Positions 15,001-21,000 of a DNA stretch of 64,000 bases are shown in pieces. The stretch covers positions 96,001 to 160,000 of the forward strand of contig JBMOMC010000001.1 in the NCBI GenBank assembly GCA_049325335.1, given 5' to 3'. A program made the position numbers. This DNA is from Nitrospirota bacterium (lineage in GTDB: Bacteria; Nitrospirota; Nitrospiria; 2-01-FULL-66-17). Positions within the stretch are counted from its first letter, which is position 1. Every line of letters starts with the position of its first letter.

Positions 15001-18000
15001 CGATCGGTCCAATATGACCTATGAACTGCTCTCGTTCGGTTTCATGCAGCGCGCCCTGGCCGCGTCGGTCATCATCGGGGTATTGTGCGCGGTCATCGGC
15101 GTGTTCGTGGTGTTGCGCGGGCTGTCGTTCATCGGTGCGGGCACGTCCCACGCCGCGTTCGCGGGGGTAACATTCGGCTACCTGACCGGCGTGTCGCCGC
15201 TGGCCATGGCGATCGCGTTCGGACTGGGCACGGTGTGGATCGTGCACGCGTTGTATCAACGCGGGGTCATGAAGCTCGACGCGTCGATCGGGATTTTTTA
15301 CACCTTCACCATGGCACTGGCGATCCTGTTCCTCGGACTGATGGGCACCTACAACGCGGAAGTGTACGGTTTTCTGTTCGGCAGCGTGCTCTCGGTCACC
15401 ACCGAGGACATCACGGTGATGTTGTGGCTGGCGGGCGCGGTGTTGGCGCTGGTGGTCCTGTTTTATAAGGAGTTCCATTTCATCACGTTCGACCCCAGTA
15501 TGGCCGAAGCCACGGGTATCGCGTCGGCGCGGCTGTTTTTCCTGCTGTTGAACCTCATCGCGCTGACCGTGGTGATCTCGCTCAAGACGGTCGGCGCCTT
15601 GTTGGTCTTTGCCATGATCGTGATTCCGGCGGCCGCGGCCTACCAGCTCGGACGGACCATGCTGGGCATGATGGCCTACGCGGTCGCGCTGGGCGTGGGC
15701 TCCTCGGTCGGCGGCGTGCTCATCTCCTACCGCTTTGACGTGCCCTCGGGCGCGACCATCGTCCTCTTGGCCACGGCGCTCTTTTTTGTCGCGGTTGTCC
15801 TGTCTCCGAAGCGGCGACGGCTGCGGGCCTCACCGTAGGACGTCCGCGAACCACATCCGGCGTCCGGTGGGTCCTTTGTGCCATTGCATTCACCAACCCA
15901 CCGATCTATAATGTGCCGTTTTTCGCACAAACGACCCTCGGCTGATCTAGCCGGTTGCGCGACCCGTCCCGTACGCTGAAACGGAATGCGTCGTAGAGGA
16001 GAATTTGATGTACAAGACGATTTACGTCCCCGTCGACAATTCGGATCACTCCAACCGCGCAATCGAGCTGGCGGTCAAACTCGCCCAGCAGTTCGGCGCC
16101 ACCGTGGTCGGCAGCCACGCCTACGCGGCCAAGATGCACGACAAACGCTTCAAACAGATGGAAGCGGGTTTGCCCGAGGAATATCATGACGAAAAGGAAC
16201 TCGAACGCCAACGCCGCATCCACGATTCGCTGATCACCCGCGGCCTGGAAATCATCACCGACTGTTACCTGGACGTGGTCGATCAGCAGTGCAAGAGCGC
16301 CAACGTAGGCTTTGAGCGGCGTTTTCTGGAGGGCAAGAACTTCCAGGTCCTGGTCGACGACATCAAGACCAACAAGTACGACCTGGTGGTCATGGGCGCC
16401 CTGGGCGTGGGCGCGGTGCGCGACAGCGTGATCGGCAGCGTGGTAGAGCGCACGGTGCGCCGGGTCCACGGGTCGGACTTTCTGATCATCAAGAATCCCA
16501 AGTCGATCGAACCCGACGGGCCGATCGTGGCCGCGCTCGACGGCAGCCCGCACTCCTACGGCGGTCTAATGACTGCGCTCGCCCTCGGCAAGGCCCTCAA
16601 CGCGCCGGTGGAAGCCATCTCCGCGTTCGATCCCTACTTTCATTACGCAATGTTCAACAGCATCGCCGACGTGTTGTCCGAGGAAGCCGGGCAGGTGTTC
16701 CGGTTCAAGGAACAGGAGAAACTGCACGAGGAGATTATCGACTCCGGGCTCGCCAAGATCTACCAGGCGCACCTGGACATCGGCAAACAGATCGCGGACG
16801 CCGAGGGGGTCAAACTCAAGACCACGTTGCTCGACGGCAAGGCCTTTGAGCGCTGCCTGCAATACGTGAAGAAGAACAAGCCGTGGCTCCTGATCATGGG
16901 CCGCATCGGCGTACACTCGGACGACACCATGGACATCGGGAGCAATTCCGAAAACCTGATGCGCCTGGCGGGCTGCAATATCCTGATCTCCAACCGCACC
17001 TACGTACCCCCGATCGACACCATGGCGCAGTACACCATTGCGTGGACCGAGGAAGCGGCCAAACGCATGGAAAAGGTCCCGGTGTTCGCGCGCGGCGTGG
17101 CCCGCACCGCGATCTATCGCTACGCGATCGAGAAGGGCCACACCATCATCTCCAACGAAGTCGTAGACGCGGCCATGGGCCACTTGTTGCCGCCGGACGC
17201 CGTGGCCGCCATGAAGGGGCTCGGCAAGACGTTGGACGCCGCGGGCGTGGACCGCAATAAAATGGAAGCCAGCGACGAGGTCGTCAAAGACCTGATGGGC
17301 GCGCAGGGCGCGCAGATCATGGGTCTGATGGGCGACACCGCCGCAGCCAGCGCGGGACAGAACGTGTTGAACTACGAGGAACGCCGCGAGTTGGATTACT
17401 GGGTGTGCAGCGACTGCGGGTATTTGGCTAAGGGTAGCCAGCCGGTCAAGTGCCCGATCTGCCCGGCCGACGGCGCCAAGTTCAAATTGATCGACAAGTC
17501 CCTCATCGTGGCCGCGGCCAAGGCCGAGGGCAACATCGAGGTGGAAATCGCGTACGACGACGTGGTGATCCAGTGGACCGCGGAAGCCAAAGAGCGGCTC
17601 AAGGCCGTGCCCTCCGGTTACATGCGCCGGCGCGCCAAGGCCATCATCGACAAGTCGGCGCGCAAGATGGGCCTCAAGACCATCACCACCGAATTCGCGA
17701 GCAAGGTCATCATGGAGTACGCCTCCGAAGTGAGCTGGAAGGACGAATTGCTGGCGGGCGATGCGGAAGAGAAACTTTCGGCCCCGGCGCCGGAATTCGA
17801 GTGGACTCGCGACGCCAATCAACGCATCGAGCGCGTGCCGCCTGGCTACATGCGCGACTGCACCAAGGGCATGGTCGAGACTCACGCGCGAGAAAAAGGC
17901 GTGCGCGCCATCACCCTGGAGATCTGCAACGAGGGCATTGAAAAAGCCAAGGCCGCGATGGAAGATGCCATGAAGAATCCGGCGAAGATGGAAGAGATCT

Positions 18001-21000
18001 TGGCGAAGTTCATGCCGAAGAAGCCGGAAACCGCGCAGCCGACGGCGTAAAGATCGCTATGTGATGTATTGGACGTATTGTAGGGGTGCACGGCCGTGCG
18101 CCCCTACGTGAGACGGCCTACCAGAGAACGAACAGCGAAATTCATGACCGTAGATCTGAAACTCCCCCTATATTCGTTGCCCCAGGAAGACTTCAAACCC
18201 TTTCTGATCGCGTGGAACCTCACCAAACGCTGCAACCTGCGCTGCGCGCACTGCTATCTCTCCGCGGGCGAGCGGGACGCGGGGTCGATCGACGAGTTGA
18301 CCACGGAGGAGTGTTACCGGACCATCGACGACATAGTCCGGGTGAACCCCGCGTCGATCCTGGTGTTGACCGGCGGCGAGCCTTTGCTGCGCCGCGACAT
18401 CCCCCAGATTGCGCGCTACGCCACGTCAAAGGGCATGATGGTGGTGGTCGGCACCAACGGGACCCTGCTCACCGACGAGAAGATCAAAGAGCTCCTGGCC
18501 GCCGGCGTGATGGGCGTGTCGATTTCGGTCGATTCGCTGGACCAACACAACCACGACACGTTCCGCCGTTTGCCCGGCGCGCTCCAGGGGTCACTCGACG
18601 GCATCGCAGCGTGCCGCCGCAACGGCCTGCAGTTTCAGGTCCACACCACCGCCAGCTCGATGAATTACGCCGAGATCCCCGCGATCATGGAGTACGCCTA
18701 CAAGGCGGGCGCGCGCGTGTACAACCTGTTCTTCCTGGTGTGCACGGGCCGCGGCGAGGAGATGTCCGACATCACGCCCGAGCAATACGAGCAGGTGTTG
18801 AACTATCTCGTCGATATTCAGACCAAGTTTCCCGGCATGCTCGTGCGCTCGCGCTGTGCGCCGCACTTCAAACGCATCGCGTACGAGAAGAACCCGGAAT
18901 CCCCGATCACGAAAGCGCAAGGATACGAAGGCGGCGGATGCCTCGCTGGCACGCACTACGCGCGCATCACGCCGGAAGGGGATCTGACCCCCTGCCCGTT
19001 CATGCCGATCTCGGTGGGCAACCTGCGCGAGACCGGGTTCGACGCGCTCTGGAACGACTCCCCAGTGTTTCACCAGCTCCGCGCGCCCCGACTCAAAGGC
19101 AAGTGCGGAGATTGCGAGTACAGCGAGTTGTGCGGCGGGTGCCGTGCGCGACCGTTCGCGTCGCATGGGGATTTCTTGGACGAAGACCTGTGGTGCAACT
19201 ATACGCCCAAGGGCGGCGCGAAGGTCCTCCCGCTGGTTGAGGCCTTCGACGGCCCCCCGCCCCCATGGAGCGAAGCCGCGTTGGAACGGCTGAACCGTTT
19301 GCCGTTTTTTCTCCAAAAAATGGTCAAACAACGCGTGGAGAAGTATGCGCGCGAACAGAGCGCGGTTGTCATCACGCCGGAATTGATGGAAGCGTTGCGC
19401 AAACGCACGTTCGGCAACGAGACCCCGGTCTTCGACATGGGGCGGTTCCAGGGGTTGATGCCGGAGGACGGTTGGCCGGGCACAGACGCGGTACCCGCGC
19501 CGAGCCAGGAGATCCGCGGGCGGTGATCGCGTCGGGCCAACTGTTCAAGATTCTCAACTTCTGGGTCCACTTGGTCTCCGCCTTTATTTGGATCGGCGGA
19601 GTCCTGTTTTCCAGCTTAATTCTCCTGCCCGCCGCGCAGAAGCACCTCAACAAAGACGTCCGCGGGGACTTCCTGCGTCGAGTTCACGCGCGCTTCCAAA
19701 AGATCTCGGGCGCGTTCGTGGGTCTGCTGCTCGTCACCGGGGGCATCAACATCCACTTCGCCAAACAATACCGCGGCGCGCTCACCGGCCTGTACTTCAA
19801 CGCGCTGATGCTCAAGATTCTCTTCTTTACCATTATCCTGACGTTCTATCTGTTACACCTCAAAGAACTGGGTGATAAGAAACCCATGCAGTACTTCCCC
19901 TATCAGGAAGCCACGTTGGTCCTCGGCGTGTTGATCATCCTGATGGCCGCCGTCCTTAAACACAGTTAACCCGGTTCGCCCGAGTTCCACCCGCTTCCGC
20001 TGGAACAAGCGGCCCAGACCGTGTATAAAGGTTTTGATACTCCGTTTGGATTACCTTCTCTCGCGGTGAGGCATCGTCGTGAATAGACGCATGATCGTGA
20101 TGTTGGTCTCAACCGGCTTGGTATTGGGCGGCATTTTCGGCTTCAAGTGGTTCGGCAACAAGATGATGAACCAGTTCTTCGACAACATGCCGATGCCGCC
20201 GGTCGCGATCACGGCTACGGACGCTCAGGAGCAAACGTGGGCCGCGACCATCGAGGCGGTGGGCACGGTCACGGCGGTCAACGGTATTGCGGTGAGCGCC
20301 GAAGTCGCCGGCGTGGTCCGGTCCATCCACTTTCAGTCCGGTGATCGCGTGGCGGCCGGCGCGGTCTTGATGATGCTCGATTCCGTGGTGGACCAGGCCG
20401 AGTTGCGAACGCTCGAAGCCCAGCGGGATCTGGCCGAAGCGGATTTGGCGCGTGGGCGCGACCTGTTCGGCTCCGAGGTGATGGCCAAGTCCCAGTTCGA
20501 TCGGGTCGAGAGCGCGGCGGCGCAAGCCGCGGCTCGCGTGGAAGCGCAACGCGCGCTCATCGCCAAAAAGACCATCCGGGCGCCGTTCTCGGGCGTGCTC
20601 GGAATTCGGCGGGCAAACCTCGGACAGTACGTGAGCCCAGGCACGCCGTTGGTCACCCTCCAATCGCTCGATCCGATCTACGTGAACTTTGCGTTGCCCG
20701 AACAACGACTGGGCCTGTTGGCCGTGGGCCAGCCCGTCGCGGCCGTCGTGGACGCGTTCTCAGACGCCGCGTTCGAGGGACGCATCACCGCAATCGAGCC
20801 GCGCGTGGACGAGAACACGCGCAACTTCGACCTCCAAGCCACCTTCCGCAACGCGGACCGGCGTCTGCAACCGGGACTGTTCGCGCGTGTTCGTATTGCG
20901 TTGCCCACGTCGGAGCGTTATGTGGTCGTACCGCAAACTTCGGTCAGCTACAACCCCTACGGCAACTCGGTGTATGTGATTCAAGAAGCCGCGCACAGCC

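Follow-up and report, generated by a model that had tools for sequence, protein, structure and literature searches.

Radical SAM/SPASM enzymes of the AhbD type are the closest described counterparts of the protein considered here. AhbD (TIGR04545; the M. barkeri enzyme, PMC10452713) and NirJ2 (TIGR04055) share its radical SAM/SPASM fold, its CX3CX2C motif and its eight-cysteine SPASM region; in characterised AhbD, CX3CX2C is combined with the SPASM pattern CX20-33CX17CX36-37CX2CX5CX2CX17-35C (PMC10452713). Because no residues have yet been assigned to the substrate pocket of AhbD (PMC11306076), the substrate of such a relative cannot be read from its sequence; and because orphan AhbD is established in bacteria that use the coproporphyrin pathway (PMC13564367), the absence of ahbA, ahbB and ahbC alone leaves AhbD activity possible. 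The TIGR04053 proteins of Bacillus, Thermus and haloarchaea are likewise AhbD-related orphan radical SAM proteins, 34-36% identical to our enzyme, but neither the complete SPASM motif nor the PCP_red domain is present in them, and they group with AhbD and outside our enzyme's branch. PCP_red (PF08369) forms the C terminus of BchB/ChlB (2KRU) and also exists as the free-standing 62-aa protein Asr4154 (PDB 2L09), so it is not confined to the BchB tail, as the genome-wide survey's note had assumed; the accessible parts of the literature state no function for it.

We analysed a window of 64,000 nucleotides from a Nitrospirota bacterium (positions 96,001 to 160,000 of contig JBMOMC010000001.1, assembly GCA_049325335.1), which encodes an AhbD-related enzyme and a tandem-Usp protein, both bearing PCP_red and both with the domains and coordinates given by the survey, as well as a second cluster of PCP_red genes (Table 1). 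We propose, with a probability of roughly 55%, that these genes together make up a module dedicated to cofactor maturation in a cytochrome bd-like respiratory complex, made up of a bd subunit-I-like protein and c-type cytochromes. The enzyme and its Usp partner most likely make or deliver the haem of this complex, rather than serving a general low-oxygen haem route. The earlier reading of the locus, an orphan, oxygen-independent coprohaem decarboxylase with its own carrier and electron sink, survives in part: kinship with AhbD, partnership with the Usp protein and the link to tetrapyrroles are supported, whereas the orphan or anaerobic step, tetrapyrrole binding by PCP_red, the rubredoxin sink and the roles of the haem-oxygenase-like protein and NikR find no support.

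Table 1. Features of the window discussed in the text (positions count from the first nucleotide of the window).
Feature	Position	Strand	Remarks
Tandem-Usp protein	16008..18050	+	680 aa; Usp x2, PCP_red, rubredoxin-like ribbon, PCP_red x2
AhbD-related radical SAM/SPASM enzyme	18144..19526	+	460 aa; Radical_SAM, SPASM, C-terminal PCP_red
PCP_red of the enzyme	19266..19400	+	residues 375-419; 54.9 bits, cut-off 32.5
Small CopD/DUF4149-like membrane protein	19523..19969	+	overlaps the enzyme's stop codon; missed in the survey
NikR	44791..45192	-	heads a metal-uptake locus
Four-PCP_red protein	45421..46413	-	330 aa; conserved C-terminal helical domain
Haem-oxygenase-like diiron oxidase (HDO; BesC/CADD-like)	46427..47188	-	between the four-PCP_red and zinc-ribbon genes
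Zinc-ribbon (CxxC..CxxC) protein	47364..48071	-	235 aa; two PCP_red
Mrp/ApbC-family P-loop ATPase (Fe-S carrier family)	48156..49079	-	missed in the survey
DUF420 membrane protein	49622..50344	-	L018 and L022 have homologues inside their bd-like gene cluster

Sequence relationships of the radical SAM enzyme

The cysteines of the CX3CX2C motif (C30, C34 and C37) and of the SPASM domain (C238, C266, C284, C321, C324, C330, C333 and C351) reproduce the AhbD cluster motif, with the spacing C238-x27-C-x17-C-x36-...-x17-C351, and none of the 28 subfamily rows has lost any of the three cluster sites or any part of the full eight-cysteine motif, which supports the enzyme's kinship with AhbD. TGRG and CAPH motifs are also common to it and AhbD/NirJ2. 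Unlike these families, however, the enzyme scores below their cut-offs, reaching 333 bits against a curated 500 for AhbD (TIGR04545) and 327 against 500 for NirJ2 (TIGR04055); the values are 284/395 for TIGR04053, 195/515 for NirJ (TIGR04051) and 184/650 for AhbC (TIGR04546), and PqqE, at 91 bits, is far under AhbD and NirJ2. Proteins of 15 of the 71 phylum genomes pass the TIGR04545 cut-off, and the core of the enzyme is 36-40% identical to four AhbD-clade proteins of the same phylum. In two trees, neither of which has a biochemically characterised AhbD among its rows, 28 subfamily rows separate from 23 AhbD-clade rows at 100/99 (with long-branch warnings), and all 37 PCP_red-bearing rows fall inside one 42-row branch (FastTree support 98) that holds no AhbD. 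Judged by sequence, the subfamily is a separate branch of AhbD relatives. It further departs from AhbD and NirJ2 in its C-terminal PCP_red, its obligate-looking Usp partner, its coexistence with AhbD and ChdC, and its association with a bd-like subunit instead of ahbA/B/C, beside which it was never found in 43 loci.

A scan of a genome collection yielded four close loci in all, and a plasmid search returned relatives of the TIGR04053 and NirJ type only. Cys200 (CTGRG replacing PTGRG), present in 28 of 28 rows, was considered as a subfamily-specific haem ligand and dropped because, of the 43 metagenome relatives that bear PCP_red, no more than 25 have it.

Among solved folds, three peptide maturases (PqqE, SkfB and SuiB) come closest, and nine core positions (N25, Y38 and R237 among them) consistently differ from AhbD in the phylum-level alignment, features that would suit an enzyme acting on a protein, for example by building a protein-derived cofactor or a cross-link into the bd-like subunit, with the PCP_red proteins recognising the target like the RRE domains of peptide maturases; the tight link to this one respiratory protein, rich in invariant His, Tyr, Trp and Met residues, points the same way. 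Yet such fold matches are expected anyway because an AhbD structure is absent from the PDB matches, the sequence is far nearer to AhbD and NirJ2 than to PqqE, four of the nine differing residues recur in a NirJ2-type protein from an ahb cluster, and the linkage to HemY suggests a porphyrin, so that we regard protein modification as quite improbable.

The tandem-Usp partner

Residues 1-335 of the partner form a core of two Usp domains, each with a G-x2-G-x9-G-S ATP motif, in keeping with the G-x2-G-x9-G-S/T pattern used to recognise tandem Usp, and adopt the same two-domain fold as Rv2623, TTHA0350 and UspE, which likewise have two ATP motifs (Z 27.4, rmsd 3.4, 277 residues). Unlike those proteins, the partner carries six near-invariant histidines (H37, H44, H72, H212, H240 and H303; kept in 134-135 of 135 sequences) in long helical inserts, has PCP_red and rubredoxin extensions and a fixed link to one enzyme, and shows no low-O2 induction in one data set. 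H44/H72 and H212/H240 are both spaced by 28 residues and lie at matching places. The rubredoxin-like CxxC..CxxC ribbon (residues 465-493) has no counterpart in 5 of 15 aligned partners, which argues against the survey's view of it as a required electron sink; its proposal that the enzyme works with the Usp protein is supported. The ESM Atlas returned no families besides Usp and PCP_red. In this class the CopD/DUF4149-like gene is the third of the run; it was seen in eight loci of one comparison and in eight of the 43 metagenome loci with a PCP_red-bearing enzyme.

Haem routes in this genome and in other carriers

Besides a HemE-HemH-HemY cluster, this genome encodes an additional HemY and an intact HemF and, as the survey reported, no AhbA/B domain (PF17805). 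HemN does not exceed its cut-off in the genome, and ChdC is absent: the lone PF06778 match is a 186-aa Cld-like protein without the ChdC motif YPxxK. Together with the best family matches to AhbD and NirJ2, the complete cluster motif, the HemY gene that often adjoins the enzyme and the precedent of orphan AhbD in coproporphyrin-pathway bacteria (PMC13564367), these absences would suit a general O2-independent coprohaem decarboxylase that completes the bulk of haem b under a shortage of O2 or H2O2, the Usp-rubredoxin-PCP_red protein being its substrate carrier and electron sink. However, at least 20 of 24 carriers possess another route to haem b (intact ChdC in 12, an over-cut-off AhbD in four, an AhbD-clade gene adjoining hemE in one, HemN in two and HemF in this genome), which leaves the proposed orphan status without support. 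Nor does an anaerobic step agree with a published proteome in which the probable orthologues are constitutive, abundant and unchanged by low O2: spectral counts for that of the enzyme, 38/43/44 versus 32/18/27, reveal no low-O2 induction. As presence also tracks the bd-like subunit and not the haem route, and the rubredoxin is dispensed with by some partners, we consider a general decarboxylase unlikely. Ferrochelatase type was rejected as a guide to the pathway: the HemH of this genome has a long N-terminal insert, which is undecisive because HemH adjoining AhbD-clade genes has one too.

Association with a cytochrome bd-like complex

The cytochrome bd-like genes of this genome lie on contig C2 (123780-129892). 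Of 71 phylum genomes, 25 have the Usp partner and 23 the bd-like subunit, all 23 being among those 25, and 46 have neither, though related genomes do not count as independent cases and linked genes travel as a unit; in mixed families the same genomes hold both (2 of 13 in f8, 1 of 6 in f7). Two genomes, G001 and G017 (92% and 95% complete), have the pair and no bd-like match. Of 43 metagenome loci with a PCP_red-bearing enzyme, 19 include a bd-cluster gene, versus 0 of 37 for other relatives; HemY is present in 11 of 43 versus 0 of 37, often directly after the enzyme, and AhbA/B/C in 0 of 43 versus 9 and 10 of 37; among the 17 PCP_red-enzyme loci of at least 9 kb, nine include a bd-cluster gene and eight none. 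The HemY counts and a PCP_red-ChdC-like fusion (below) uphold the tie to tetrapyrrole metabolism.

In other bacteria, two loci (L206, L211) present a one-strand run of Mrp, ribbon/PCP_red, ferredoxin, Usp, enzyme and bd-cytochrome genes, and a third (L168) a one-strand run of bd-cytochrome, Usp, enzyme and HemY genes. In G031 the enzyme adjoins bd genes, and in G063 it does so across a contig break; both genomes also carry over-cut-off AhbD. The pair does not adjoin bd-like genes in the window or in those same-class genomes that we examined. Of 19 near-complete metagenome contexts, ten are uninformative or have other neighbours: the eight loci of at least 9 kb that lack a bd-cluster gene, and two that adjoin a molybdopterin oxidoreductase cluster, not bd genes. 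A promoter scan gave 0 sites, a sequence search with the bd-like subunit gave no solved relative, and our literature search found no study of an enzyme-Usp-PCP_red module.

PCP_red and the second gene cluster

All nine PCP_red matches of this 99%-complete genome fall inside the window, and the domain is present in 14 of 14 same-class genomes. PCP_red here exceeds the PF08369 gathering cut-off, and its structural model matches the three-helix fold of 2KRU (Z 9.2, rmsd 2.2 over 60 residues); it is the domain of BchB/ChlB and of Asr4154. Unlike in BchB/ChlB, its host here is a non-phototroph, up to six copies may follow one another, and the proteins that carry it are a radical SAM enzyme, a zinc-ribbon protein, a Usp protein and a pseudo-ChdC; free PCP_red proteins of 58-68 aa occur in loci L027, L028 and L032. 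Among 124 copies no column has His, Cys or Tyr above 27%, and one Met column reaches 45%; with no conserved His, Cys or Tyr, PCP_red gains no support as the tetrapyrrole-binding part, though it may contact the ring without a ligand.

ChdC catalysis depends on the Tyr and Lys of YPxxK and on a proximal His. Judged by alignment to solved ChdC, these residues are lost in 34 of 34 PCP_red-Chlor_dismutase fusions (family f12), while the ChdC proteins of families f2 and f3 all retain them (13 of 13). Such a catalytically stripped fusion, the mostly regulatory nature of Usp folds (as in the fold matches Rv2623 and TTHA0350) and an HmuY-like gene after the enzyme in L033 and L133 would fit haem or redox sensing, or haem chaperoning, without net ring chemistry, the enzyme being a radical-SAM haem chaperone and the Usp protein an ATP-dependent regulator of a respiratory operon. 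We think this very unlikely, given the intact cluster sites in 28 of 28 enzymes and the dedicated Mrp, ferredoxin and HemY neighbours, which fit catalysis.

As the survey supposed, the two PCP_red clusters belong together, sharing operons and fusions: the four-PCP_red protein is fused to the enzyme in P0095, P0107, L031 and L132 and to the Usp protein in L128 and L131. Three of its PCP_red copies exceed the cut-off and the fourth is degenerate; the survey gave three for this flank of HDO and, as found here, two for the other. The ATPase gene encodes a PF10609 P-loop NTPase domain (235 bits) and stays under the equivalog cut-offs of MrpORP (246/450) and ApbC (168/348); it is a paralogue that, in 12 of the 14 genomes of this class, adjoins the gene for the zinc-ribbon-PCP_red protein. 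BchL contacts BchB only (PMC12022308), and the accessible literature does not assign this contact to the PCP_red domain; by analogy with BchB-BchL, PCP_red might be a dock for Mrp, which we offer as a lead. Cys-Pro in the zinc-ribbon linker was rejected as a set of haem-regulatory motifs: five close relatives keep it and four distant orthologues lack it.

BesC and CADD, the best solved-structure matches of HDO (E 1e-11 and 2.6e-10), are non-haem diiron enzymes, so its "haem-oxygenase-like" name implies no tetrapyrrole role. HDO stays below the family cut-offs (53/500 and 71/200) and is absent from 11 of 25 module genomes, and is probably a lineage-specific neighbour outside the core. NikR, adjacent only here and in L012, looks incidental. 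From these neighbourhoods and the HDO absences, we rejected both as module members. The DUF420 membrane protein is a possible accessory.

A model for haem maturation

From the observed domains, motifs, separate branch, operons, fusions and co-occurrence we infer a model of substrate, product, haem binding and protein contacts. Coproporphyrin III from the host pathway or the module-linked HemY would be metallated, and the enzyme, like AhbD, would work on the propionate groups of Fe-coproporphyrin III, so that either haem b or a haem modified in another way results. The tandem-Usp protein would hold this haem via H44/H72 and H212/H240, although these histidines could bind a metal ion instead, and hand it on in a probably ATP-gated transfer. 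Mrp and the zinc-ribbon-PCP_red protein, with a ferredoxin or the rubredoxin ribbon where present, would provide Fe-S clusters and electrons, and PCP_red would be a docking or lid domain that gathers the members without itself being a haem ligand. A bolder extension, possible but doubtful, is that the bd-like oxidases, proposed as terminal oxidases of Nitrospirales and of many uncultured bacteria, use an undescribed haem made from coprohaem by this radical SAM subfamily, that the Usp-fold protein is its chaperone, and that PCP_red is a general docking tag on BchB, AhbD-like proteins and pseudo-ChdC.

In Nitrospira-type nitrite oxidisers, bd-like proteins are candidates for the terminal oxidase, a function that is only proposed for them (PMC10579370). 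A conserved maturation module would name the genes needed for active expression of the bd-like complex, which occurs in nitrite oxidisers and many other bacteria, and would predict a special or specially delivered haem in it. The module would also, for the first time, place a Usp-fold protein that has a defined putative ligand site in an enzymatic setting, and would give the PCP_red domain a role outside photosynthesis.

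The two PCP_red clusters of the window form a single system

Domain searches confirmed the make-up of the tandem-Usp protein and the adjacent radical SAM/SPASM enzyme reported in the genome-wide survey's note, and a whole-genome search gave 9 PCP_red matches, every one of them inside the window. The small CopD-like membrane gene that overlaps the stop of the enzyme gene keeps its position right after it in 8 loci. The second cluster encodes, in order on the minus strand, an Mrp/ApbC ATPase, a zinc-ribbon protein with 2 PCP_red domains, a haem-oxygenase-like diiron oxidase (HDO), a protein with 4 PCP_red domains and a conserved C-terminal domain, and NikR.

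Features of the window and related loci (window positions unless a locus is named)
Feature	Position	Strand	Basis
Usp protein, 680 aa: two Usp stretches, rubredoxin-like ribbon, three PCP_red	16008-18050	+	domain search
Radical SAM/SPASM enzyme, 460 aa; PCP_red at residues 375-419	18144-19526	+	domain search
Small CopD-like membrane gene	19523-19969	+	
Four-PCP_red protein with C-terminal domain	45421-46413	-	
HDO-fold oxidase	46427-47188	-	
Zinc-ribbon-PCP_red protein	47364-48071	-	
PCP_red-ChdC-like fusions, family f12	L026:9335-10378; L079-L084		

Both clusters belong to a single system. In P0095, P0107, L031 and L132 the enzyme carries the whole four-PCP_red protein as a fusion; in L128 and L131 the Usp protein carries the C-terminal domain of that protein, a domain found in 22 of 71 phylum genomes (the window's own and 70 sampled evenly, with completeness of 90% or more), all among the 25 that carry the Usp core. 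The zinc-ribbon proteins of L206, L211, L193 and L179 find that of the window as their best match (E 1e-20 to 1e-25), and an Mrp paralogue adjoins the zinc-ribbon-PCP_red gene in 12/14 same-class genomes. HDO, most closely related among solved structures to BesC and CADD, was rejected as a module member: 11 of the 25 module genomes lack its family, and both HDO and NikR, previously linked to the module, are adjacent only here and in L012.

In some same-class genomes (L015:502-9865, L024:3294-13278), Mrp and the zinc-ribbon-PCP_red gene close a sulfur-assimilation run (Rrf2, sulfite reductase, CysH, CysD, CysN). A second gene of the HDO family (contig C1, 58162-58893), which lies outside the window, adjoins a DsrE/TusA sulfur-relay set, 4 kb from the second hemY. 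The window also holds a metal-handling island (13257-15838, 29626-45225) with three ZnuA-type binding proteins, a molybdate-like ABC set, a heavy-metal RND efflux set, an OprB-like porin and NikR.

The module accompanies a cytochrome bd-like complex

The module is real, multi-gene and conserved in many lineages. The enzyme was found in 24/71 genomes (one copy cut by a contig end; the contig of a 25th genome stops inside the Usp gene) and the Usp core in 25/71. The cytochrome bd-like subunit, part of a proposed respiratory complex of nitrite oxidisers and others, occurred in 23/71, every one among these 25; 46 genomes had neither, and the 71-genome search gave no bd-like match in G001 and G017, which carry the pair. 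In mixed families, both traits fell in the same genomes (2/13 in f8, from two genera; 1/6 in f7). Since related genomes are not independent samples and linked genes move as a group, this co-occurrence is a sign of linkage and not a probability. Ferrochelatase (62/71) has a different pattern, and AhbD does not follow that of Usp and the bd-like subunit.

The best 80 of 590 confirmed metagenome loci comprise 43 whose enzyme is fused to PCP_red and 37 without the fusion. Of the 43, 22 contained Usp, 19 a bd-cluster gene, 11 HemY and 8 Mrp, and none AhbA/B/C; of the 37, 9 contained AhbA/B and 10 AhbC, and none a bd-cluster gene or HemY. Among those at least 9 kb long, the fusion loci had Usp in 15/17 and a bd-cluster gene in 9/17, the latter versus 0/16 of the loci without the fusion. 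L206 and L211 contain a one-strand run of Mrp, zinc-ribbon-PCP_red, ferredoxin, Usp, enzyme, bd-like subunit and c-type cytochromes; the order in L168 is bd-like, cytochromes, Usp, enzyme, HemY; and in L169 and L180 the neighbour of the module is a molybdopterin oxidoreductase cluster that has accessory genes in common with the bd clusters. In the window's own genome, the bd-like run sits on contig C2. We favour, with a probability of about 0.55, the reading that this gene set serves to mature the bd-like complex's cofactor.

In L143 (3255-8983), L169 and L180, the module adjoins a Rieske/molybdopterin oxidoreductase, an arrangement that we take to be iodate-reductase- or arsenite-oxidase-like; L143 also has two di-haem cytochrome c peroxidases. 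An extra two-PCP_red protein, absent from the window's own genome, lies within the bd-like cluster of related genomes (L018:8148-8621, L022:7228-7710, L127:4219-4818). In family f9, an HmuY-family haem-binding protein is encoded two genes downstream of the enzyme (L033:4051-4692, L133:1461-2123).

The enzyme is a relative of AhbD

The enzyme had been identified as AhbD-type. In keeping with this, the CX3CX2C and full eight-cysteine SPASM motifs, defined for M. barkeri AhbD (PMC10452713), are retained in 28/28 enzyme relatives. However, its profile scores fall below the cut-offs (333 bits to TIGR04545 and 327 to TIGR04055, cut-offs 500; 284 to TIGR04053, cut-off 395), and its branch is separate. 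In IQ-TREE (56 rows, with long-branch warnings), the 28 relatives part from 23 AhbD-clade rows at 100/99; in FastTree (149 of 173 rows, those spanning the enzyme core), 37/37 PCP_red-bearing rows fall in a single 42-row branch (support 98) that contains no AhbD and no AhbA/B fusions, both trees having been built without any characterised AhbD. On sequence grounds, the enzyme is a sister subfamily of AhbD, outside AhbD itself by these tests. The predicted structure (pLDDT 81.8) is an ordinary SPASM fold, with PqqE, SkfB and SuiB as the nearest solved folds; that the enzyme modifies a protein, namely the bd-like subunit, appears improbable.

Many AhbD-clade enzymes (P0318-P0423, 20 tree rows) are fused to AhbA/B domains, and none of these bears PCP_red. 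In L052, L058 and L065, an AhbD-clade gene lies immediately upstream of hemE, with hemH nearby in G003, G029 and G065; it is likely a true orphan AhbD of a coproporphyrin route in the phylum, separate from the PCP_red branch.

Haem routes and oxygen response

The survey's note took the enzyme for an orphan, oxygen-independent coprohaem decarboxylase. Such a general anaerobic role is favoured by the window's own genome, where profile searches found no ChdC, over-cut-off HemN or AhbA/B, and by orphan AhbD in coproporphyrin-pathway bacteria, which is established (PMC13564367). Most carriers, however, already have a ChdC, AhbD, HemN or HemF route, with no gap for the enzyme to fill. Of the 24, all but G006, G007, G011 and G016 could be assigned: 12 encode a ChdC whose YPxxK motif and proximal His are intact (as they are in 13/13 genomes of families f2 and f3), four an AhbD above cut-off (G001, G020, G031, G063) and two a HemN above cut-off (G017, G037); in G065 an AhbD-clade gene immediately precedes hemE; and the window's own genome has intact HemE, HemF and HemH and two HemY.

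A published proteome (PMC8115632) bears on the anaerobic role. In Nitrospira marina, the gene of a 699-aa Usp protein adjoins that of a 460-aa SPASM enzyme, probable orthologues of the window pair by length, adjacency and annotation. Spectral counts at atmospheric versus low O2 were 112/132/125 versus 132/97/128 for the former and 38/43/44 versus 32/18/27 for the latter; three 'proto-chlorophyllide reductase subunit' proteins were steady, and four other Usp proteins increased significantly at low O2. The pair did not rise at low O2, which speaks against an anaerobic role, and we consider a general decarboxylase unlikely.

In G058 and G067 (family f3), ChdC is present, as is HemY in G067; since no ferrochelatase (PF00762) match was found at 99-100% completeness, another chelatase must insert iron there.

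A putative ligand site in the Usp core

PCP_red, known only as the tail of BchB according to the survey's note, had been proposed as a tetrapyrrole-binding module. PDB 2L09, a free 62-aa member, shows that it is not confined to BchB. An alignment of 124 copies reveals no conserved axial ligand: conservation is seen for W, A, R, L, P, F, E, A, G, I/V and T, and His, Cys and Tyr reach at most 27% in any column, although PCP_red may contact a ring without such a ligand. The Usp partner lacks PCP_red in L124 and L134, and the rubredoxin is missing from 5/15 aligned partners and kept in 118/120 close homologues; what stays constant is a tandem Usp fold with two ATP motifs (model, Z 27.4 to Rv2623). 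Its helical inserts keep H37, H44, H72, H212, H240 and H303 in 134-135 of 135 sequences, with H44/H72 and H212/H240 at matching places of the two Usp domains. Because these paired histidines are near-invariant and PCP_red has no conserved His, Cys or Tyr, the Usp histidine core, and not PCP_red, is the putative ligand site. Sensing or chaperoning without ring chemistry is the least probable role that we considered.

PCP_red is also fused to a ChdC-like protein in 6/7 genomes of family f12 and in 34/36 database matches, several source-labelled Leptospirillum. The fusion is the sole PF06778 match in its f12 genomes; among the four f12 fusion genomes tested, HemN is above cut-off in 4/4 and an AhbD-like match in none. 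In all 34 fused proteins (P0121-P0154), the catalytic Tyr and Lys as well as the proximal His are lost; we take the Tyr and Lys of YPxxK and this His to be the functional residues of ChdC. The fusion is a pseudo-enzyme, perhaps a porphyrin-binding or scaffold protein. PCP_red thus occurs on three unrelated tetrapyrrole-handling hosts, BchB, an AhbD relative and a ChdC-like protein, and a docking or lid role fits.

Free 58-68-aa PCP_red proteins of family f7 (L027:1358-1555, L028:9209-9385, L032:8979-9185) are encoded in a conserved gene run that also specifies a thiamine-binding-family protein, a cupin, a zinc ribbon and PmbA.

Proposed role

A full-text search, mostly of papers outside subscription, found none on the enzyme subfamily, the Usp partner or PCP_red outside DPOR, and the accessible parts of PMC13474568, PMC13297055, PMC11306076, PMC12022308, PMC10579370 and bioRxiv 2025.02.17.634645 state no PCP_red function; the enzyme-Usp module is apparently undescribed and unstudied. 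The odds that the enzyme yields haem b or something new are about even, with a new haem, specifically, rather doubtful. In the maturation of the bd-like cofactor that we favour, HemY or the host pathway would supply coproporphyrin, the enzyme would perform AhbD-like radical chemistry on coprohaem, Mrp, the zinc-ribbon protein and ferredoxin would service the clusters, and the Usp protein would hold the product and then pass it on.
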